In this document: piece after piece, positions 5,706 to 20,131 of the stretch
Position numbering within the stretch: the stretch's first letter is position 1
Layout of the letters: each line of letters starts with the position of its first letter
DNA from: a virus
Lineage: Duplodnaviria; Heunggongvirae; Uroviricota; Caudoviricetes
Virus record (IMG/VR): IMGVR_UViG_2526164634_000010
Location: 1-31,230 of that record
Direction: 5' to 3' (one strand)
Length of the DNA: 31,230 bases
The notes under the pieces: model-generated
Databases searched by the model: none
What the model saw: only the letters and a program-made list of their open reading frames with translations
Told to the model about the DNA's origin: nothing
Translations under genes and position numbers: made by a program

Positions 5706-6467
5706 TTACGAGGAAGCGTTAGCTATTTGAGCTTGTGTAAATTCGAAACCAGAATTTTGTAACCGTTGCACTAGACGAGGAACTGTTTCACGTACATGGT
5801 CGTTGAAATTCAGATACAAAATCCCGTTAGCATCAGAAGGCTGTTCTAGGTGCTGTTTCTGAAGGATTGCTACATTGCTGCGCCCTAAGGACGAAAGAAG
5901 CATACCCATCTCGAGTACAACGTTCTGTCTTGCGCGGGGTTGGATTTCTGCTTCACCGGCGCGCTTTGAGTATCCCATATCATCAGGTGTCAAAAGAACA
6001 ATCCCGAAACGGGTAGCAGTTTGTCCTTGCCCAATTTCACGTTCAAGCTCTTCAATAATGGTGAGTCCAGTCCCTCCCGTATTCTGCAAAATGAAATGGT
6101 CTGGTAATCCAAGTTTATGAAGGATTAGCTCAAGTTGCTCCTTTGCAGTATGGTCATGGCCGTGAACAATGAATATCTTTTTGGGGAGCTCAGATGGCTG
6201 TTCTACGGCTAGTGGTGTTGCCGTGGGCGGCGTTCCTAAATGGGTCATTATTGCAGTTTCAACATTGGGACGTTCTTGAGGGTTACCTTGAAACTGAATG
6301 GTCCGGGTGGTGTAAAGGTTAACAATTACGCCATTCGTTAAACGATAGCAGTCACAAGTCTCACGCTGTTCGTGGGAAAAATTGGTGAACCCACACTCCC
6401 TCAAAAAGTCAGGAAAAGTTTCTCTCGGGTATGGATAGGTGATCGGCATTTCAGTTAGTTCCTGCAT
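5706..6467 (-). CDS. two-domain protein: unknown N-terminal domain + C-terminal TIR-like/SLOG-like Rossmannoid nucleotide-processing domain
   Basis: 253 aa; C-terminal half has KKIFIVHGHDH (strand-1 motif of TIR-like COG4271-type proteins), GGTGLTIIEELE (LOG/SLOG-like) and RQNVVLEMGMLLSSLGRSNVAIL (xNVxxExG motif); N-terminal ~95 aa unrecognised; AGGAA RBS; cotranscribed downstream of the DNA polymerase gene. Confidence 0.6.
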   Translation of the reverse strand: MQELTEMPITYPYPRETFPDFLRECGFTNFSHEQRETCDCYRLTNGVIVNLYTTRTIQFQGNPQERPNVETAIMTHLGTPPTATPLAVEQPSELPKKIFIVHGHDHTAKEQLELILHKLGLPDHFILQNTGGTGLTIIEELEREIGQGQTATRFGIVLLTPDDMGYSKRAGEAEIQPRARQNVVLEMGMLLSSLGRSNVAILQKQHLEQPSDANGILYLNFNDHVRETVPRLVQRLQNSGFEFTQAQIANASS

Positions 6468-6531: not shown

Positions 6532-8595
6532 TCAATCTTTTTTGTAGTGGTACGCCTCAAAACCGCCAGCGTTCAGTGGGATATCGGGCGCCCATTCGGG
6601 GTCAGTGGAGAGAAGCGCGGAAAGCGCTTTATCGTTGAAATCTTCTGTGTCAGGTGCTTCGGTGATCACCTCGTTGTGTACCGTCAGCACAATGCTGTAA
6701 CCGGCATCTTCGATAAGCGGCATGTTTCCGGCCAGAATGTCGCGGGCGGCCGCCTGGGTGATGTTCTCCACCAGCTTTCCGCCGTAGGTTTTGAGTCGTT
6801 GCCATTTACGCGAATAAGAGTTAACCCCCATGTAGGTGATATTCCCTTTTTCGATAACCGGAGACGGGTAGCATACAGCGCGTCCGGATGGTAGCTGTAT
6901 GCGCAGCCACGCGCCATCGCGGCGGATTTTAAGATAACCGCAATACAATGTTTTTTGCGGTGTGGCGATTGCAGTGCGGACGGTGCGCTCCAGTTCGTAC
7001 CAGAAATCACAGGTCGCGGGATGCGCCCGGCGCCAGAGACGTTTAAGTGAGTCGCAGGCGATAAATACCCGTTCAGAAAGCCCGTAGGTTGACTTGCGTT
7101 TAACCGATTCGTCGTACCAGCTTTTCGCCTCGCGGATAACATCGCGGGGAATGTTTGGTAGTGCGGCGTTCGCCAGCTCGTCGAGATCGAGACCGTAAAC
7201 CAGTGCAAAAGTGATGAAGGCCGACACACCACCACCATAACCCAGACCGAGTTCCATGACTTTACCGATCTGACGCATGTGTTTATCAACATCATCTGGT
7301 GCAATATCGAAAGCTTTTGCATACGCCAGTTTATATAAGTCCGGACCCGTTCCGGCGTCGTACTCTCTGAATGCATTCAGTTTCCATTCTTCTCCCGCCA
7401 GCCATGCCAGCATACGGCCTTCAATGTTCGACAAGTCACTTACCACCAGCTTTTTGCCTGTTGGCGCGATAATGCAGCCACGTAACGCTGAACTGGTTAG
7501 TTCCATGATATTGTCAAACAGCAGGTCTGCACATCCGGCTTTCAGTGCTTCGATGCCTTCGTCTATTTGTTCCTGTTTTAGTGAAGGGCGGGGAAGGTTC
7601 TGGGGCTGGAATAGCCGTCCGGCCCAACGACCGGTACGTGACGCCCCGCAGAACTGTAGCGTACCGCGTAAGCGCCCGTCGTGGCTTACGCCTTTCATCA
7701 GTGCCTTGTATTTACTGGTGCTGGTAGTACTGGCCTGCAGGCGGATAGCCAGCAGTTCTTTCACGGCAGATGGTAAATCGGGGTCGGCAATACGACGTTC
7801 CAGAGTACTGCGTTGCATGTCTGGTAGCTCCACACCGTAGGATTCAACAATGTGCTTAATCAACGCGTCTCGTTGTGTGGCTGCCTGCACTTCGCCATCA
7901 GTCATTTCCTGTGTACGCTTTGCCAGGCGCTTTTGTTCCTGGTCTACCGCGTCGATCGCAGCGCGTGCGAGTTCCACGTCCATGCAGACGCCCCGGTCAT
8001 TGATCTGCTGATCACGATGCCAGAGCGCCAGTTCTGTCCCCTGATAATTCCACTTCGGCAGACGTTTATAGACTTCGCGCATTGCCTCGATATCCAGTCC
8101 GGCGTAAGCAACAAAGCGCCGCCATTCTTCCGGGTGGGTTTTGCTGGTGGCCCGGCGCAGTTTGCTGTTTTTCGGGCGTGGCTTACAGAACAGCTGGATC
8201 AGCGCTTTACCTTCTTTGTCCTTCGCTTTGTCTTGCGGGACGCCTAGTACTTCGCAGAGTTCCCCCAGAGACCCCGGGAGACCGTGCGCCAGCGCCTGCA
8301 CCATTGTGTCGCGCCAACGTTCGACTGGCGGTGCCAGGCGCGGCATTGCATAACGCAGAACGGTGCGGTCGAAGTGAGAGTTATGGAAATAAAGCAGGGT
8401 TTCAGGGTCTGCGATTGCTTCGTATAAGCCGTGTGGAATACCACCACCGGCAGTGATATCCCACACGTTTACTGGCCCGTCGTTGATAGCCCATGCGAAA
8501 AGCATCACTTCAACGCCTTCGGCATACGCATGGGTACCGTTCGTAATAGGGATTTCGCAATAGGTTTCCAGGTCGCCCCATAGTATATTGGACAT
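6532..8595 (-). CDS. family A DNA polymerase with N-terminal 3'-5' exonuclease domain
   Basis: 687 aa; exo motif GDLETY; pol motif [16 protein letters not shown] (RxxxKxxxxGxxYG); motif C-like VHNEV. Confidence 0.9.
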
Positions 8596-8641
8596 GTGTT
8601 TACCTTGGTTTTTATTCTATTAACTGATTAAAAGATTAATT

Positions 8642-9271
8642 ATGCATATGATCCAATACTTGATTGACCATACAGAGCATCTGGAGAAAATAGCTGGATA
8701 TATTTTTTCATGTTTGATTGTTATGGGAGTCTGGATAAGAAAGATCATTTTTAATTATAAGTATAAAGAGCCTAAATATGTTAAGAAGTTAATTTTATAT
8801 TTAGTTAAGTATGAACGTTATCTGGATGAGGAGGATAAGAGTGCCATAGAAAAAAGAATAAATGATAAAATTATTCGTGATGCGCTGAAATTGCAATCAT
8901 CTTATAACCGAAGAGATGTTATTTACATTTGCAATAGATTAGAAAAAAGACAGTATATAAATCAGTTGATTAAGCTTCAGAATTATATAGAGAAAGATAA
9001 CGGAGTGTTTTTTATTAATGTTGATTTTTCAGGTTTTTTATTTATTATTAGTCGTCTGTTTTCCTTTCTGTGTTTTGTGCTGTTTACCCTTTTTTCTATT
9101 ATCTGCATTATTTCCATAGGGCAAAATGAAGGCCTTTTAAATTATCTTGTGTATATGGTTATGATAATAGTTTTAGAGACTGTTGGTTTTTGGATGTATG
9201 ATACTTTCCCGTCTAAGAAAAAGATCTGTGAACTAAATAAAGAATTGAGAAAGATTAAGATTCCTGAGTGA
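8642..9271 (+). CDS. low-GC moron: hypothetical membrane protein
   Basis: 209-aa ORF, very AT-rich; hydrophobic N-terminal segment and two C-terminal hydrophobic segments around a Lys/Glu-rich region; opposite strand to flanking replication genes; no family recognised; start uncertain (ATG 8642 or 8648). Confidence 0.5.
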   Translation: MHMIQYLIDHTEHLEKIAGYIFSCLIVMGVWIRKIIFNYKYKEPKYVKKLILYLVKYERYLDEEDKSAIEKRINDKIIRDALKLQSSYNRRDVIYICNRLEKRQYINQLIKLQNYIEKDNGVFFINVDFSGFLFIISRLFSFLCFVLFTLFSIICIISIGQNEGLLNYLVYMVMIIVLETVGFWMYDTFPSKKKICELNKELRKIKIPE

Positions 9272-9323: not shown

Positions 9324-9872
9324 TTAAATTAGTGCTTCAGCATCAGCACCTTCGCTGATATCGTCGAAATCGTCAGCGCTTGCCACTCCGCCGCCAGCGA
9401 ATGCATCGCCGTCTCGCAGGAACTGGACTCCGCCGAGTGAGGCATTAATGCGTTTACCGAAATTATTGTCCTGTGCCCAGATATCGATAACGGCGTTTAC
9501 ATAGCACCCTGCATAGGGACGTCCGTCAGCCTGAATAAGTGGCGAACGATCGCGATCAAGAACAGCTGGGCGCGCTTTGTTAGCAGCATTCAGGAAGAAA
9601 TTACCGGGGAAGCCTTCATACTCTGCTTTTTCATCACCATCATGCAGGCACAGATTGAGTTTTTTCTCCAGCTGGTTATAAATGGGCTCCCACTTCTCTC
9701 CCCATTTTTCCTTCGCTACCTGCTTCATAGCTTTACGGATTTCTTCCAGTTGTGGGTGTTTGGGAGACATTAAAAATACTGCGGAGAAACGCGGATCGCC
9801 TTCGCCGTTTACAGTTTTAGCTTCAAACAGAGACGGGAAGGCCAGACGAACATTGTTCAGCTTCAGTTTCAT
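9324..9872 (-). CDS. DUF2815-like phage protein (possible ssDNA-binding role)
   Basis: 182 aa; position next to a DUF2800-like nuclease and family A polymerase matches a recurrent phage replication module; family assignment from memory, not searched. Confidence 0.5.
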   Translation of the reverse strand: MKLKLNNVRLAFPSLFEAKTVNGEGDPRFSAVFLMSPKHPQLEEIRKAMKQVAKEKWGEKWEPIYNQLEKKLNLCLHDGDEKAEYEGFPGNFFLNAANKARPAVLDRDRSPLIQADGRPYAGCYVNAVIDIWAQDNNFGKRINASLGGVQFLRDGDAFAGGGVASADDFDDISEGADAEALI

Positions 9873-12356: not shown

Positions 12357-12551
12357 TCAGTTGGTATTGTGCGTACGTGGTACCACAAGGTTGAAGCGGA
12401 CACGCCAGTGCGTTGCAATGGTATGCAGGAAAGCACCACATCCAGGGCAGTGCTCATAACATTCGTTGATTTGGTATCGTTTTGGCTTTGGTGTCTGAAG
12501 CTGTGTTTGGCAAGCAGGGCATTCACCTTTGAGCGGTTTATATGTTTTCAC
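12357..12551 (-). CDS. small zinc-ribbon protein, first gene of the leftward early transcript
   Basis: 64 aa with GTG start and GAGGAA RBS; CPAC...CPGC motif; Lys/Arg-rich; followed directly by a terminator. Confidence 0.5.
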   Translation of the reverse strand: MKTYKPLKGECPACQTQLQTPKPKRYQINECYEHCPGCGAFLHTIATHWRVRFNLVVPRTHNTN

Positions 12552-13497: not shown

Positions 13498-13617
13498 GGG
13501 ATTAGTCCTTCTGGGTTGTATTAATGTGTATACCCACATTAAAAACAATTTTTGTTGTATTTGACAAACCTCATTTGTTGTTGCTAAATACCACTAAAAT
13601 TGTATGAGGTGAAAGCA
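13498..13617. promoter_or_regulatory. divergent immunity promoter/operator region
   Basis: TTGACA at 13561-13566, 17-bp spacer, -10-like ctaaat; repeated GTTGTATT/TTGTTG motifs; lies between divergent repressor and cro-like genes. Confidence 0.5.
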
Positions 13618-13830
13618 ATGACCTTAGCGACCCGAGTAAAAGAACGACGTAAAGAACTCAAAATGACGCAAGTTACGTTGGCTGAGCTCACAGGAGTGAG
13701 CCAGCAGGCAATAAACAGAATTGAAAGTGGTGTTATTGCTCGGCCACGTTATCTTCTTGAAATGTCTATAGCATTGGATTGCGACCCTAATTGGCTGTTG
13801 TATGGCTCACAAAACGATAAAAAGGCTTAA
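13618..13830 (+). CDS. Cro-like HTH regulator
   Basis: 70 aa from ATG 13618 (GAGGTG RBS); HTH MTQVTLAELTGVSQQAINRIESG; divergent from the repressor. Confidence 0.75.
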   Translation: MTLATRVKERRKELKMTQVTLAELTGVSQQAINRIESGVIARPRYLLEMSIALDCDPNWLLYGSQNDKKA

Positions 13831-13833
13831 CCC

Positions 13834-16026
13834 ATGTCCGATAGCAAACCATGGGGAGCTACGCCTGATGAGTGGTTTCATTTCGACCTGGTATTGGGGA
13901 GAACTGATCATCTTCTCCCAGTTGTATGTAACCCCGGTGCGACCATATCCCCTGATAGTAAACTGAAAGCGCTGGGTAAGACGCCAAGTCGCTATAACCG
14001 GGACCGCCAGGTCACCGGTATTGCTCAATGGACCGGGTATGTTGTTACTGAGCATGATTTTGCCCGCTGGTCGAATGAACCGGATTATGGCATCTGCGTG
14101 CGTACAGGCCATGGCTGGCTGGCGCTGGACTGCGATAGCGAAGATGAAGACATTCAGGCAGATATTCGCAAAACGCTTGTGCAACTTCTGGGGGAGTTGC
14201 CGCCGCGACGCTGGCGAGCAAACAGTAATAAGTGTCTGTATCTGCTGGCCGTTGATGGTGATTTCTGTAAGCGTATCCATCGCCTGGCGGGGGATATGGG
14301 CATTATCGAGTTGCTGGCGAACGGGCAGCAGTTCGTTGCCTGTGGTACGCACAGCAGCGGCGCGCGTATTGAATGGGACGGTGGTTTGCCGGATGAACCT
14401 CCGGCTATTACTGGTGAGCAGCTTGAAACGCTGTGGCAGCGCCTGGCTGAACAACTCCCTGTGTCGGTAACCACCGAAGCGGGCAACACGAAGATGCGCG
14501 ACCGATCAGCATTCACGCCCGGCGCGACGGATGATACAGCTGAATATCTTGATGCCAATGGCTGGACGCTGCTGGATGGCGCAAATGGTGAACGATATAT
14601 CCGCTGTCCGTTTGAAGACGGCCACAGTAGCGGGGGCGATCCAACAAGCACAGCTTATTTTCCTGCGGGAACCGCGGGCTTTGAGCAGGGGCATTTTAAA
14701 TGCCTGCATGCCAGTTGTGCGCATCGTGATGACGGAGATTTCCTTAATGCCATCGGGATCCGCAACGACGATTTCGAAGATCTGACCAGCACCGAAGTGG
14801 CGGAACCTTTACCGCTGCCTGCTTTCGAGCGTGATAAATGGGGGCGTATCGAGGCAACCATCAGCAACGCAGCCAAAGCAGTAGTACGCCCTGATTTTGT
14901 GGACATCGATATTCGCTTTGACCAGTTCCGCGACGAAATCATGTTTGCCTCTGCAGGATCCGGACAATGGCGAGCATTCACCGATGCGGATTATGCGCGC
15001 CTGCGCATCACGATGGAAAAGCGGGGATTTAAACCTGTTGGTCGTGAACTTATTCGCGATGTGGTGTTACTTGCAGCCGATGAACAACCATTCGATTCAG
15101 CGATTACCTGGCTGAACGGGCTGGAGTGGGATGGCGTGCCGCGCATCGAATGTTTCTACCATACGCACTTCGGTACAGCCGACACGCCTTATACCCGTGC
15201 GGTGTCTATGTACATGTGGACCGCGTTGGCGGGGCGAGTACTGGAGCCAGGCATCAAAGCGGATATGGTGCCGATCCTCGTTGGTCCGCAGGGCTGCGGT
15301 AAGTCTTCCGGAGTGGAGGCACTGAGCCCTGATCCTGCGTTTTTTACTGAAATCTCTTTTGCCGAAAAAGACGATGATCTCGCTCGAAAAATGCGTGGTC
15401 GGCTGGTGGCAGAGATTGGTGAACTGCGCGGACTTAATACCAAAGAGCTGGAGTCAATCAAAGCGTTTGTGACGCGTACTCACGAAAACTGGATCCCGAA
15501 ATACCGGGAGTTCGCCACCCAGTTTCCTCGTCGCCTGGTGTTCGTTGGTACCACCAATGAGGACGAATTCCTTGCGGACAAGACTGGTAACCGTCGCTGG
15601 CTCCCCGTGGAAGTGTCGAAAGTCGACGTGAAAGCGATAAAAAGAGATCTCCTTTTACTTTGGGCTGAGGCTCGTGAGGTGTTTCAGCGTCTGGGGGGTA
15701 TCCAGTTCCGTGAGGCTGAACAACTGGCAGCGAGTGTCCATGAACAGTACACCATCAAGGATGCTTGGCTTGAAACGGTAGAGAAATGGCTCGACACGCC
15801 AGACCTGATGACTAATGAACTTCCGCGAAATTGCGAATTTTTACGCGCAAGTGATGTTTTGCGTGATGCGATTGGGCTAAATCCTGACCGCATCGGAAAA
15901 CGCGAAGAAATGCGAATTAGTAATGTTTTGCAAAATTGCGGGTATAAGCGTGCCCAAAGGCGAATTGGGGGGAAAATGACTCGAATTTTTGAGGCGGTGT
16001 CCCAACCTGTACCAGCCTCAAAATAG
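13834..16026 (+). CDS. replication protein: primase-polymerase N-terminal domain + P-loop NTPase (VirE/D5-like)
   Basis: 730 aa; Walker A VGPQGCGKS; Cys/His-rich segment CPFEDGHSSGG...HFKCLHASCAH; directly downstream of cro. Confidence 0.8.
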   Translation: MSDSKPWGATPDEWFHFDLVLGRTDHLLPVVCNPGATISPDSKLKALGKTPSRYNRDRQVTGIAQWTGYVVTEHDFARWSNEPDYGICVRTGHGWLALDCDSEDEDIQADIRKTLVQLLGELPPRRWRANSNKCLYLLAVDGDFCKRIHRLAGDMGIIELLANGQQFVACGTHSSGARIEWDGGLPDEPPAITGEQLETLWQRLAEQLPVSVTTEAGNTKMRDRSAFTPGATDDTAEYLDANGWTLLDGANGERYIRCPFEDGHSSGGDPTSTAYFPAGTAGFEQGHFKCLHASCAHRDDGDFLNAIGIRNDDFEDLTSTEVAEPLPLPAFERDKWGRIEATISNAAKAVVRPDFVDIDIRFDQFRDEIMFASAGSGQWRAFTDADYARLRITMEKRGFKPVGRELIRDVVLLAADEQPFDSAITWLNGLEWDGVPRIECFYHTHFGTADTPYTRAVSMYMWTALAGRVLEPGIKADMVPILVGPQGCGKSSGVEALSPDPAFFTEISFAEKDDDLARKMRGRLVAEIGELRGLNTKELESIKAFVTRTHENWIPKYREFATQFPRRLVFVGTTNEDEFLADKTGNRRWLPVEVSKVDVKAIKRDLLLLWAEAREVFQRLGGIQFREAEQLAASVHEQYTIKDAWLETVEKWLDTPDLMTNELPRNCEFLRASDVLRDAIGLNPDRIGKREEMRISNVLQNCGYKRAQRRIGGKMTRIFEAVSQPVPASK

Positions 16027-16027
16027 A

Positions 16028-16182
16028 GGTTGGTACATTTTAACTAATTGAATTTAAAGGTCAGTACCAACTGTACCATCTGTACCAACCTAATTACTAA
16101 GAACCCCATATATATATATAAGTCGCTTGGGGAAAAGGTTTGAAAAGAGCTGGTACAGGTGGGTACAGATTGGTACAGGCCG
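16028..16182. repeat. iteron cluster, candidate phage replication origin
   Basis: GTACCA at 16064, 16073, 16082 (9-bp spacing) and inverted TGGTACAG/GGGTACAG at 16151, 16161, 16171 (10-bp spacing) flank a (TA)7 tract at 16108-16121; a further tggtaca at 16031; immediately downstream of the primase gene. Confidence 0.5.
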
Positions 16183-16307
16183 AACAAGGAATTTTTTGCA
16201 CATAACAGCGTGTAATAAGCGAATCGGAACTGCGTTATCCACACCCACGGATAAACAGACGTGGTTCTCAGAAAATTTTTTCGTAGCAAAACGTAGAGGT
16301 CAGAGCT

Positions 16308-16730
16308 ATGCGTAATATTCAACAGGTTTTAGAGCGCTGGGGTGGCTGGGCAGCGAGTGAAGGTGGTAGCGTCTACTTTCCTCCTGTTGCAGCCGGGTTT
16401 AAGAATCTGCTACCCGCGACGCAGTCTGGAAGGCTGAAATGCAGTGACAATGACGGTCTTATCATCAACTCCGCTATGAGCTGCCTGAAGAAAAAAGATC
16501 CGTATCTGTGCACGCTCCTTGAGTGGCATTACGTCCAGGCCATGCCCGTGCGGGCGATGGGTGAGAAGCTCGGCGTATCTCACACCCACGTTCTGAAGAG
16601 GCTTCAGGCGGCAGAGGGATTTATTGACGGTTGCTTAGCCATGCTGGATGTGGTGCTCGAAATGGATCAGTCGGTTCAGTCAAAGCCTCAGGCTATCAGG
16701 ACTTTGCGTAGGAGCTGCTCGGCGGCATAA
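16308..16730 (+). CDS. Q-type late antiterminator (phage 82/QuuD-like)
   Basis: 140 aa; N-terminus MRNIQQVLERWGGWAA, AAGFK and RLQAAEGFIDG segments resemble remembered Q82-family sequences; located upstream of the lysis cassette. Confidence 0.7.
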   Translation: MRNIQQVLERWGGWAASEGGSVYFPPVAAGFKNLLPATQSGRLKCSDNDGLIINSAMSCLKKKDPYLCTLLEWHYVQAMPVRAMGEKLGVSHTHVLKRLQAAEGFIDGCLAMLDVVLEMDQSVQSKPQAIRTLRRSCSAA

Positions 16731-16761
16731 TATCCAGCAATCAATCACGTAAGGGAACCAG

Positions 16762-17102
16762 ATGGCTCTGATCAGCGTTCGCAACAGATTTGAAAGCTTC
16801 ATGGAACAGAGGTACCCAGACCTGTCGTTGCAGGTCAAAGGTAATATTGGCGCATCAATGAAGGCTCAACTTGGCATCGGATTGAACGAGAATTGTACAG
16901 TGAAGATGTTACTTACTGTGATTCAGCAGTTCAGTTGATGTGGACACTCTTTCAGGCAGGTGTTCTGGCCGAACGAAGAGCTACCAGCGTTACGCTTCCT
17001 GCGCTGAAGGCAAAGCCGGATAGCTTCTACGATGCGGGTTATAACGAAGGTATTCAGGACTGTCGTAAACATCTGACGGCATCAGGCATCAAGGTAAGAT
17101 AA
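16762..17102 (+). pseudogene. two overlapping short ORFs in different frames (possible frameshifted moron)
   Basis: Frame 1 ATG 16762 to TGA 16938 (58 aa); frame 0 open from 16845 to 17102 (track ORF 16893-17102, TTG start; internal ATG at 16937); no family recognised. Confidence 0.25.
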
Positions 17103-17169
17103 AAAATAGTTGTGGAATTCCAAAAAGCCGATTAGCCTGATATCTGTTGAAAACAGTTCATCACGAAGA

Positions 17170-17193
17170 GGCTTCCGCAAGGGGGCCTTTTTT
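17170..17193 (+). terminator. intrinsic terminator (possible tR'-like terminator of the Q-proximal transcript)
   Basis: 7-bp stem GGCUUCC/GGGGGCC (two G-U pairs) with GCAA loop followed by TTTTTT at 17188-17193. Confidence 0.45.
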
Positions 17194-17418
17194 ATTGCCC
17201 CATTCTGGGGAAAAGCTAATAAAACAGGGCTTTCGCTGCGAAAAAACGCTATGCAGTTTTTGCCCTTTTTTATGCACCTTTTATTCACTCGAATTTCGTC
17301 ATTCTGGACCACTTAAGTTGATTAAATAGGCCTTTCATCGCAAATCTATTGCGAGCGGGGATCGTGTGGTTCCTATAACGTACATTATGTTAAATAACTT
17401 CCTTTTTTAACAAATTTA

Positions 17419-17427: not shown

Positions 17428-17457
17428 GTAAGCGGCTCGCCAGAACCGTATTGATAT

Positions 17458-19029
17458 TTACTGAGAGGTCAGATCAACTTTCCAGGGCAACAGATCGCGT
17501 ACCCGGTTTGCCGGCCAATCCTGGATATGCTCAATGACGTAACGCAGCCATTTTTCTGGTTCCACATTGTTCAGACGGCATGTGCCGATCAGCGAGTACA
17601 ACACCGCCGCATGTTCGCCACCGCTGTCGGAACCCGCGAACAGCCAGTTTTTCCGGCCTACGGCCACTCCCCGTAAGGCGTTCTCTGCGATGTTGTTGTC
17701 GATTTCCACCCAGCCATTACTGCAGTACACGTTCAGGCCATCCCACTGTTTCAGCAGGTATGCGAACGCTTTTGCCGTATCCGAGTGACGCGACAGTGTT
17801 TTCATCTGAGTCTGTATCCAGTCATACAGTGACTGCATCAGTGGCGCAGCTCTGGCTTTTCTTGCCGCCAGACGCTGTTCTGCTGTACATCCCCGGACTT
17901 CTGCCTCTATGGCATACAGTTCACCGATACGCTGCAGGGCTTCCGTGGTGATGTCGGTGGGCACTCTTGCATGCACATCGTGGATTTTTCTCCGGGCATG
18001 AGCCATACACGCGGCTTCCGTTATTCTGCCGGATTCGTATAACACCCGGTAACCACCGTAAGCATCGGCCTGAAGCACACCGCTGTAACCGGCCAGATGA
18101 TTTTGTGGATGGATACCTTTCCGGTCCGGTGAGTACGCGAACCAGACCGCCGGGGGCATTTCCGAACCGGCGTTACGGTCATCACGGACGTAGACCCACA
18201 GCCGGGCGGTCCGGGTTTTACCGCTGCCCGGCTCCTGGACCGGGACGGGGATATCATCAGCATGGACTTTACCGGGCATCAGCACATACTGGCGCAGGAC
18301 GTCATACAGCGGCTCCAGCAGTTCAGCAACGGCACCTGTCCAGCGCCCCAGCGTGGCGCGGCTCAGCTCCACGCCCTGGCGACGGTATATTTCTGACTGG
18401 CGGTATAACGGCAGATGGTCTGCATATTTCCCGGTAACAACATGGGCCAGAAGCCCCGCTCCGGCATAACTGCGTGCAATGGGTTTTGAAGGTACTGTTG
18501 CCTGCACGATATGGTCGCACCGACAACAGGCCAGTTTCGGACGTTGTGTTTCGATAACCTTAAAGGCGCTGCTGATAAGCTCCAGTTGCTCTGACACATC
18601 ACACCCCAGAGGACTGAGGTCACCACCACAGGCCGGGCAGCATTCCTCTTCCGGCCGGATGACCCGGGTTTCACGGGGAAGTGAGGCCGGTAACGGTTTA
18701 CGGGCTGAAGACTGGCGCAGGGCGGATGGCAGTACCGGGTCATATTGCTCACCCAGCGTTTCCGCCATTTCTTCCTGAAGTGCGCTGATTCGCTCCTGTG
18801 CTTCCTGTATCTGCCGTTCGGTTTTAGCGCGAAGTTTTTCTGAGCTTTTACCGAACTGCATGCGCTGCAGTTTCGCAACCAGCGCCTTCAGCCGGTTGAT
18901 TTCGGAAGCATAAGCCGCCACCCGCTGTGAGAGCAGGCGGTTGTATTTCGCCATCTGGCGGATGGTGTCCTGTTGCGTCTGCAACAGTGCCCGCAGGCGG
19001 GCATTCTCATGAGCAAGTGAGGTGTCCAT
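17458..19029 (-). CDS. IS66-family transposase TnpC (orf3)
   Basis: 523 aa; N-terminal coiled-coil, Cys motif CPACGG...CCRCDH and catalytic core typical of IS66 TnpC. Confidence 0.8.
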
Positions 19030-19048
19030 ATCCTCACTTTACAACGGG

Positions 19049-19396
19049 TTATATGCGGATGCCAGCGCGTTCCGTTCGTTTCGGGTGCTTCCAGTCGATG
19101 CCTTCGAGAAGCATGGACAACTGAGCCGGAGTAAGGTGAACCTTTCCATCGCGGGTGACCGGCCAGACGAAGCGGCCCCGCTCCAGGCGTTTGGTGAAGA
19201 GGCACAGTCCGTCACTGTCAGCCCACAGCACTTTTATCTGGTCACCCCGGCGTCCGCGGAAGATGAACAGATGCCCGGAGAACGGGTCATCCTTCAGGAC
19301 GTTCTGAACTTTTGAGGCCAGGCCGTTAAAACCATTTCGCATATCGGTGATACCGGCAACCAGCCAGATACGCGAACCGGCAGGGAGAGATATCAT
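19049..19396 (-). CDS. IS66-family TnpB (orf2)
   Basis: 115 aa; MISLPAGSRIWLVAGITDMRNGFNGL matches the remembered IS66 Orf2 family. Confidence 0.8.
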   Translation of the reverse strand: MISLPAGSRIWLVAGITDMRNGFNGLASKVQNVLKDDPFSGHLFIFRGRRGDQIKVLWADSDGLCLFTKRLERGRFVWPVTRDGKVHLTPAQLSMLLEGIDWKHPKRTERAGIRI

Positions 19397-20046
19397 CAGT
19401 GGCTGCTCCCTTTCATTTCGCGGATAAGTGTCTGTAATAACGCCGGTGTCAGTTCACCTTTCAGCCTGAGAGTTCCGGCCGGCAGAACCAGCTCGCAGCA
19501 CAGACTGTCTGGCAGTGTATTTATCTGTTCAGGTATCTGCACTGGTGCCGGGATTTTATTATCCGGCTCCGGAGTTAACGTCACGGGAAGTAGCGATGTT
19601 TCATGTTCGCCGGGCGGTTGCAGGCCACCGTTACGCCAGAGATGCCGCCAGTTAAAGAGCAGGTTATCGTTAATTCCATTCTCTCGAGCTATTTGTGCGA
19701 CACAGGCACCGGGTAAAAGAGTTTGCTGAACCAGTCTCCATTTAAACTCCGGTGAAAATCGGTTCCGGCGGGGTTTCTCTGCTTTCACAGGCTGAGTCAC
19801 GGTCGGGGCTGAAGGGTATCGCCCCGGGAAAAGAGCCCGGGCCAGTTGCCCGCAGGAATATTCACCGGAAAGAGGCCAGTCAGTGAATACCTGGTGAAAT
19901 CGCCTCACCAGAGAAAAAATGGCGGTTTTGCTGACACCAGTCTGCGCAGAAATGCGCGGGTACGACAGTGACTCGTCAAATCTCAGCTGTAGCACACGCA
20001 GGATCAATTCTGGATTATCTGCCAGTACCGCTTTTCGTGCATTCAT
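19396..20046 (-). CDS. IS66-family TnpA (orf1), HTH protein
   Basis: 216 aa; first ORF of the IS66 operon; overlaps orf2 start. Confidence 0.7.
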   Translation of the reverse strand: MNARKAVLADNPELILRVLQLRFDESLSYPRISAQTGVSKTAIFSLVRRFHQVFTDWPLSGEYSCGQLARALFPGRYPSAPTVTQPVKAEKPRRNRFSPEFKWRLVQQTLLPGACVAQIARENGINDNLLFNWRHLWRNGGLQPPGEHETSLLPVTLTPEPDNKIPAPVQIPEQINTLPDSLCCELVLPAGTLRLKGELTPALLQTLIREMKGSSH

Positions 20047-20131
20047 CTTAAATGTCCTTTTACTGCGAAAATGGACATTAGTATCGGAAACAGGAAAGGG
20101 AGGCGAAAGACGGTTTAAATGATGCGCTTAC

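Follow-up and report, generated by a model that had tools for sequence, protein, structure and literature searches.

A cluster of short repeats lies immediately past the primase gene of a temperate E. coli prophage, and the question that it raises is whether these repeats make up the replication origin of the prophage or serve some other function. The DNA analysed here (31,230 bp in all, hereafter the window) is a segment of the E. coli chromosome that carries a complete temperate prophage adjoining yfhL. From 13500 to 17400 the window is 100% identical to E. coli strain FDAARGOS_1059, and related copies of the prophage are found in 148 of 5,426 complete E. coli genomes. The prophage encodes an integrase, a DEAD-box helicase, a VRR-NUC protein, a family-A DNA polymerase (6532-8595), a Gp2.5-like single-stranded DNA-binding protein (SSB; 9324-9872) and a PD-(D/E)XK nuclease, and the regulators comprise a LexA-like CI repressor, a Cro-like HTH protein and the antiterminator Q, whose gene (16308-16730) is downstream of the repeat array. 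Further genes code for a replication protein of 730 aa ('VapE domain'), for lysis and for a complete set of head and tail proteins; the presence of terminase, portal, capsid, tail, lysis and DNA polymerase genes identifies the element as a full prophage and not a PICI satellite. Two further features of the element were recorded. A 2.7-kb IS66-family insertion (17429-20127), made up of a transposase gene (17458-19029, minus strand) and two accessory ORFs (19049-19396 and 19396-20046), sits between the Q module and the holin gene, where it probably cuts the late genes off from Q and the late promoter; it is missing from the FDAARGOS_1059 prophage, which is elsewhere ~99.98% identical. The early-left region contains a gene for a TIR-domain protein (5706-6467, minus strand), possibly anti-phage defence cargo.

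The repeat array occupies 15998-16177 and consists of eight good 9-bp iterons and one degenerate copy, the consensus unit in this window being TGTACCAAC. The iterons form three groups: one that is palindromic over the primase stop codon, one of three tandem copies at 9-bp spacing and one of three inverted copies at 10-bp spacing. As a preliminary description of this DNA had stated, the array lies directly 3′ of the primase gene, an ORF at 13834-16026 that ends in TAG at 16024-16026. The extent given there was too small, however: the feature is real, but further copies at 15998-16006, 16008-16016 and 16029-16037 move its beginning ~30 bp to the left. In the stop-codon group, iteron A1 (TGTACCAGC, 16008-16016, plus strand; 12-mer score 18.8) falls in the last primase codons, where it encodes PVPA of the C-terminal tail, and iteron A2 (TGTACCAAC, 16029-16037, minus strand; score 17.5) falls just past the TAG stop, so that A1 and A2 form a palindrome with 12-bp arms around the stop codon. 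The degenerate copy (TGTCCCAAC, 15998-16006, plus strand) is within the primase coding sequence and has one mismatch to the class consensus; because its weight-matrix score of 10.1 is inside the background range, its membership in the array is uncertain. The last eight residues of the replication protein (SQPVPASK) are encoded by iteron DNA, at 15998-16026.

The other two groups face each other across a spacer. The left set (AGTACCAAC, TGTACCATC and TGTACCAAC; 16063-16089, plus strand) is made of three contiguous 9-bp units that point toward the spacer, and both reading of the sequence and repeat and motif tools bore out the three copies of GTACCA at 9-bp spacing reported earlier, with starts at 16064, 16073 and 16082. 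The right set (TGTACCAGC, TGTACCCAC and TGTACCAAT; 16149-16177, minus strand) has 10-bp spacing, points back to the spacer and scores 16.0-17.6. Three inverted copies 10 bp apart had been described here and are indeed present, at 16151, 16161 and 16171, but the middle copy carries one mismatch and reads GGGTACAG, not TGGTACAG.

The clustering of these units is pronounced. All six exact TGTACCA sites in the 31,230-bp window fall inside 170 bp (16008-16177), compared with 2.8 sites expected window-wide, and a given motif would cluster to this degree with a probability of ~3e-11. No 7-mer reached 6 copies per 200 bp in first-order Markov simulations (n = 100), in which the maximum was 5, seen in 2 of the 100. 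A weight matrix constructed from the eight copies scored those copies at 15.6-20.1 bits and the best other site in the window at 12.5, and a scan of the 31-kb window with this matrix revealed no second iteron cluster, of the crr type, above background. The TGGTACCA palindromes at 12378 and 15546 were considered as a second cluster and rejected, as they do not match the extended iteron.

The spacer between the left and right sets (16090-16148; 59 bp, 68% A+T) is a candidate DNA-unwinding element. It contains an alternating AT tract, ATATATATATATA at 16108-16120, bordered by CCCCA and TGGGG; what had been called a (TA)7 tract is thus present, but it is 13 nt long and amounts to 6.5 units. When duplex stability was calculated along the window, the 30-bp stretch 16091-16121 ranked 23rd least stable of 31,200 (z 3.3). 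Other AT-rich stretches of the window, such as 8600-9050, are less stable than the spacer, and because the spacer is not the stability minimum of the window, stability alone cannot call an origin. GC skew, in local and window-wide profiles, gave no signal for an origin.

To what protein might such an array belong? [quoted passage not shown] Residues 384-657 match SaPI1 Rep (PDB 7pds) by sequence with an E value of 7e-34, and a model of residues 381-730 matches the same entry by Foldseek with an E value of 1e-12; 7pds is a SaPI1 Rep-DNA complex (PMC9371898). The last ~90 residues have no family match. AlphaFold2 predicts that residues 641-723 (15754-16002, plus strand) form a winged helix consisting of H1, H2 and H3 followed by a β-hairpin (strand 704-711, turn G712-G713, strand 714-721), with pLDDT values of 83-88 over most of this C-terminal domain (CTD) in a 350-residue model and a mean of 76 in a CTD-only model. 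Winged-helix domains were among the matches recognised when the CTD model was searched with Foldseek, although these matches were weak (best E 0.018), and the P4 alpha winged helix (1ka8) was absent from the top 50. The N-terminal domain of the primase had been proposed as the part that binds the repeats; the predicted binding module lies instead at the opposite end of the protein, in the C-terminal winged helix (~641-723).

The homology to SaPI1 Rep connects the array to a group of origins that have been studied experimentally. SaPI Rep is a characterised self-loading initiator-helicase with its origin immediately 3′ of its gene; SaPI origins contain 6-12 short iterons in two opposed sets around an AT-rich centre, and Rep binds these iterons via its C-terminal winged helix, both binding and melting being ATP-independent (PMC9371898). 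A rep-ori fragment from the E. coli PICI EcCICFT073 replicated a temperature-sensitive vector (PMC6092414). As in these SaPI/PICI systems (SaPI1 Rep, SaPI5 PriRep5 and EcCICFT073), the candidate origin in the window is directly 3′ of the initiator-helicase gene, and oppositely oriented iteron sets flank an AT-rich centre. The SaPI/PICI helicase is of the SF3 type and self-loading, a property that the window protein would be expected to share by its homology to SaPI1 Rep, and the fusion of primase to helicase has a counterpart in SaPI5 PriRep5 (PMC9371898, PMC6092414). There are also differences: the SaPIs and PICIs are satellites whereas the window holds an entire temperate phage that encodes virion proteins and a DNA polymerase of its own, SaPI iterons are penta- or hexanucleotides whereas those in the window are contiguous 9-bp units, and the palindromic pair of iterons at the stop codon is an addition in the window. 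Because the protein is homologous to SaPI1 Rep and carries a fused Prim-Pol domain, as PriRep5 does, and because the design of the origin matches, we conclude that 15998-16177 very probably serves the prophage as its replication origin. Iteron binding, melting, helicase loading and priming are functions that we infer for it by homology with SaPI Rep and PriRep.

The same layout was found in more than 160 related phage loci, obtained in two overlapping retrievals. From left to right, these loci share a palindromic stop-codon group, ~25 nt of intervening DNA, three tandem iterons, an AT-rich spacer that usually includes a (TA)n tract, and two to four inverted iterons. The first retrieval comprised 80 IMG/VR loci whose replication proteins share 72-100% identity with that of the window, and the layout was retained in every one (80 of 80). 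The second used the conserved spacer as the sole query against genome and viral collections and yielded 86 loci; the primase gene ends ~137 nt upstream of the spacer in 85 of these, the exception being a truncated locus, and no orphan origins (satellites with the spacer but without the primase) were present among the 86. A scan of viral contigs seeded with the primase of Caulobacter phage JessA produced no matches. More distant relatives keep the layout with repeats of their own, including Yersinia phage YeP4 (protein 73% identical; repeat AGACAACCT), APSE-1 (~70% identical over the C-terminal 57%, the sole part that aligns; GTAACAACC), Caulobacter phage JessA (46% identical; TGTAACCAC), Acidovorax phage ACF1 (TGTTCCTAC), E. 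coli phage vB_EcoM-683R1, in which the helicase half differs (AGGTGACGG), and eight more metagenomic relatives.

Several local variations on this layout were observed. In the TGTAACCAC, TGTTACCAC and TGTATCCAC classes of iteron (defined below), the first iteron supplies a TAA stop codon, resulting in a 722-aa protein, and variants of the overlap between stop codon and iteron were seen at L031, L032, L038 and L084. Locus L080, and that locus alone, has an extra tandem triple (CCCTCGCAG x3) ~16-42 nt past the primase stop, after the stop-codon group and ahead of the left set; it is unrelated to the iterons. To the right of the last iteron, a conserved block at 16179-16215 (columns ~255-290 of alignment A3) reads CGAACATGTAATTT(A/T)TTGC..GTAGCGATATGCAA in most classes and contains an inverted TTGCA/TGCAA; it may be one more element of the origin or a site that regulates Q. 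The hypothetical gene P4 of APSE-1 (L002; 3361-3582) overlies the (TA)n spacer and the right set of the predicted origin there and is probably not a gene but origin DNA.

Comparison of the loci revealed that the iterons fall into at least 11 sequence classes and that each five-residue wing motif after the GK turn of the protein corresponds to a single iteron class, both in the ~80 loci initially compared and again in the 86 spacer-retrieved loci. In the window this segment is M715-T716-R717-I718-F719 (15976-15990, plus strand), in the second strand of the wing, and the motif MTRIF is paired with class TGTACCAAC. The motif KMRIF is found with TGTCCCAAC, KQRIW with TGTCCCCAC, K[CSR]K[VLI]W with TGGAACCAC, LMKVW with TGTTACCAC, VQRVW or VSKVW with TGTAACCAC, VLKVW with TGTATCCAC, VCRVW (APSE-1) with CGTAACAAC, QQR[VI]F (YeP4 included) with CTAGACAAC and QIRVW with CTAGACCAC; the spacer-based retrieval added MTKAW with TGAAGCCAC. 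Automated iteron calling took the wrong register in 7 of 77 loci, and in these the classes were set from the sequences and k-mer counts.

This association is not a matter of overall protein similarity. A single-linkage cluster of 33 loci, in which the first 690 residues are at least 97% identical, spans 8 classes, and loci of the same class have protein identities as low as 70%; for example, L008 is 98.5% identical to the window protein and belongs to a different class, whereas L074 is 77% identical and shares the class of the window. Iteron class shows no coupling to Q, Cro, CI or CTD residues 641-711, and residues 715-719 are the sole segment of any neighbouring protein that co-varies with it. 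On the DNA side, the copies on both sides of the spacer change in concert, mostly in the five 5′ bases, with the 3′ C(A/C)AC kept and the spacer itself near-invariant across iteron classes (alignment A3, 8 classes). Concerted change at the iterons alone, around a conserved spacer, is a prediction of co-evolution between a protein and its sites, and the pairing of wing motifs with iteron classes lends indirect support to iteron binding by the winged helix. In 10 of 11 classes, F or W at the fifth wing position goes with CAAC or CCAC, respectively.

From these alignments, the iteron sequence and the five-residue segment are read as having been exchanged jointly, about a dozen times, between phages that are nearly identical. 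The wing codons are 20-200 bp from the iterons, and therefore linkage within the swapped cassette contributes to the association. With about even confidence, we propose that residues 715-719 are the main determinant of iteron specificity and that they form, with the adjoining ~200-bp origin, a compact cassette that recombination has passed between replication genes at least 97% identical elsewhere and that exists as about a dozen mutually orthogonal pairs. One genome (IMG taxon 2837389702) contains two prophages of the family with different classes, L055 (CTAGACCAC) and L062 (TGGAACCAC), on contigs 000004 and 000003, respectively; this co-residence is consistent with compatibility of different classes.

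Of the explanations that would dispense with an origin, the one that survives best is that the array is mainly regulatory, with the primase binding the 3′ end of its own gene and the repeats past it so as to autoregulate its expression or to modulate a terminator that gates read-through from the early operon into Q. On the plus strand, the A1/A2 palindrome followed by TTTT (16008-16041) looks like an intrinsic terminator closing the primase gene: it was flagged as a terminator-like match with a 12-pair stem and a 6-nt loop, and the predicted RNA hairpin is strong (-23.5 kcal/mol, z -6.2). Furthermore, a search of the plus strand of 15800-16500 revealed no sigma-70-like promoter for Q, which suggests that Q is probably transcribed by read-through of the array region, and the stop-codon palindrome is conserved in every iteron class. 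The hairpin is kept in all classes because both of its arms are iterons. The T-run, however, is only 4 T in the window and is missing in several classes (L008, L039 and L068). A purely regulatory array also leaves unexplained why three iterons on each side converge on a conserved AT-rich spacer, a geometry that matches the experimentally proven SaPI/PICI origins of the homologous protein (PMC9371898, PMC6092414). We thus regard regulation as an unlikely main function of the array. At the stop-codon group, a regulatory role may exist alongside origin function, and the iteron pair there could be a conserved accessory site acting as an anchor, an autoregulatory site or a partial terminator.

We also considered whether the repeats are sites for a protein other than the primase, namely Q, the Cro-like HTH protein, CI or a host factor such as DnaA, and found this very unlikely. 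Q is encoded directly downstream of the repeats, and binding by Q was the alternative named in the preliminary description. This possibility is contradicted by 10 loci in which Q is at least 97% identical, 3 of them with the iteron class of the window and 7 with another; conversely, the window's class includes 10 loci where Q either falls below 90% identity or is undetectable. The uncoupling of Cro and CI from iteron class argues in the same way against those regulators, and the weight-matrix scan found no iteron-like site in the cI-cro operator region or elsewhere in the window. In favour of DnaA, the sole perfect DnaA box in the window (TTATCCACA, 16235-16243) lies 58 bp to the right of the last iteron, as part of an inverted TTATCC-N8-GGATAA. 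The box is retained in some variants (L008) but absent from L032, L036 and the alternative downstream type, and because it is not conserved we did not count it as a component of the origin. Nor could any host factor account for the presence of about a dozen iteron classes in a single host range.

That the array arose by chance or reflects low complexity or a small coding gene, for which one could cite two candidate ORFs (92 aa at 16044-16322, minus strand; 62 aa at 16127-16315, plus strand), long stop-free minus-strand runs across the region in many loci and the annotated ORF P4 at the equivalent place in APSE-1, is extremely improbable, since the clustering far exceeds chance, the small ORFs have TTG starts and no Pfam match, their open length varies from 42 to 100 aa within and between classes, class changes rewrite the putative peptide, and Rfam gave no match in the repeat array that would point to an RNA (the lone match in 15800-16500, sub-threshold at E 0.2, is inside the Q gene).

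The observed repeat anatomy, its conservation, the protein domains and their homology, and the co-variation agree, on computational grounds, with the original suggestion of an iteron origin with an unwinding element that is served by the adjoining primase/NTPase. How might such an origin fire? Upon induction, transcription from pR would lead to synthesis of the 730-aa replication protein, and its C-terminal winged-helix domains are predicted to bind each 9-bp iteron in two parts: contacts with the conserved 3′ half, C(A/C)AC, are probably made by the portion of the CTD that does not vary, and contacts with the 5′ half, which differs between classes, probably by residues 715-719 of the β-wing. 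Two hexamers would be placed head to head by the convergent sets of three iterons, with the 59-bp spacer between them. The AT-rich spacer would melt, the helicase rings would load themselves without a separate loader, and the Prim-Pol domain would lay down the first primers, which the prophage DNA polymerase and the Gp2.5-like SSB would extend bidirectionally.

Origins of this kind are already known, and the example from this prophage family and the series of swaps add to that knowledge. Iteron plasmids (pSC101, RK2, R6K, F and P1) likewise place repeated initiator sites beside an AT-rich unwinding element, and their iterons are 17-22 bp long, in direct orientation, and used together with conserved DnaA boxes and host DnaB/DnaC. 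In contrast, the units in the window are 9 bp long and in convergent sets, no DnaA box is conserved, and the initiator doubles as a helicase. In lambdoid phages, the specificity of the initiator O and the iteron sequence co-vary between related phages, and an AT-rich region adjoins the iterons of ori-lambda, which is within the pR operon and hence crossed by transcription; co-variation of initiator and iterons, an adjacent AT-rich region and a place in the pR operon are features that the candidate origin in the window shares. The lambda iterons are ~19 bp long, are inside the O gene and are read by the N-terminal domain of O, a protein that is neither helicase nor primase and recruits host DnaB through P, whereas the window protein has a predicted C-terminal determinant and is itself both helicase and primase. 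In phage P4, the winged helix of alpha binds short repeated 'type I' octamers in the origin, and replication needs two separated cis elements, ori and crr. The window, by comparison, has a single iteron cluster in 31 kb, and its protein has a Prim-Pol domain (PF09250) where that of P4 has a DnaG-like primase domain.

With respect to protein architecture, P4 alpha combines a primase, an SF3 helicase and a C-terminal winged helix in one polypeptide (PMC2777425; PDB 1ka8), as does the window protein, in which the winged helix is predicted. ORF904 of archaeal pRN1 has the same domain order as the window protein (Prim-Pol, SF3 helicase and a predicted C-terminal winged helix), and an essential cis region of pRN1 is 3′ of the replication gene (PMC2777425, PMC4234260); no iterons are identifiable in pRN1 (PMC2777425), whereas those in the window are conspicuous. 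The initiators of iteron plasmids, too, use winged-helix DNA-binding domains (PMC4980987). The 'Eru10' Stx phages have a cI / Prim-Pol protein / Q arrangement that matches the window (PMC8951638). No report of an iteron origin came up in our literature searches, whether for APSE, for this family of enterobacterial prophages or for the 'Eru10' Stx phages.

These results place the origin of a widespread enterobacterial prophage family whose relatives include APSE, the defensive phage of the aphid symbiont Hamiltonella. The organisation of PICI origins has been described as unique to PICI satellites (PMC6092414); the occurrence of this organisation in complete phages as well bears on the source of satellite replicons. 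As judged from sequence comparison, specificity appears to sit in a very small, swappable cassette of wing plus origin, of which about a dozen natural versions exist, and the series of classes provides a testable hypothesis on how the β-hairpin of a winged helix sets DNA specificity. If the proposal that residues 715-719 form orthogonal pairs with their origins is correct, then the classes would be a rare natural series from which to read the code of wing-to-DNA recognition, and they would supply an orthogonal origin set for engineering, including candidate orthogonal replicons for E. coli. For the prophages themselves it would mean that related members of the family could coexist without cross-firing of their origins.
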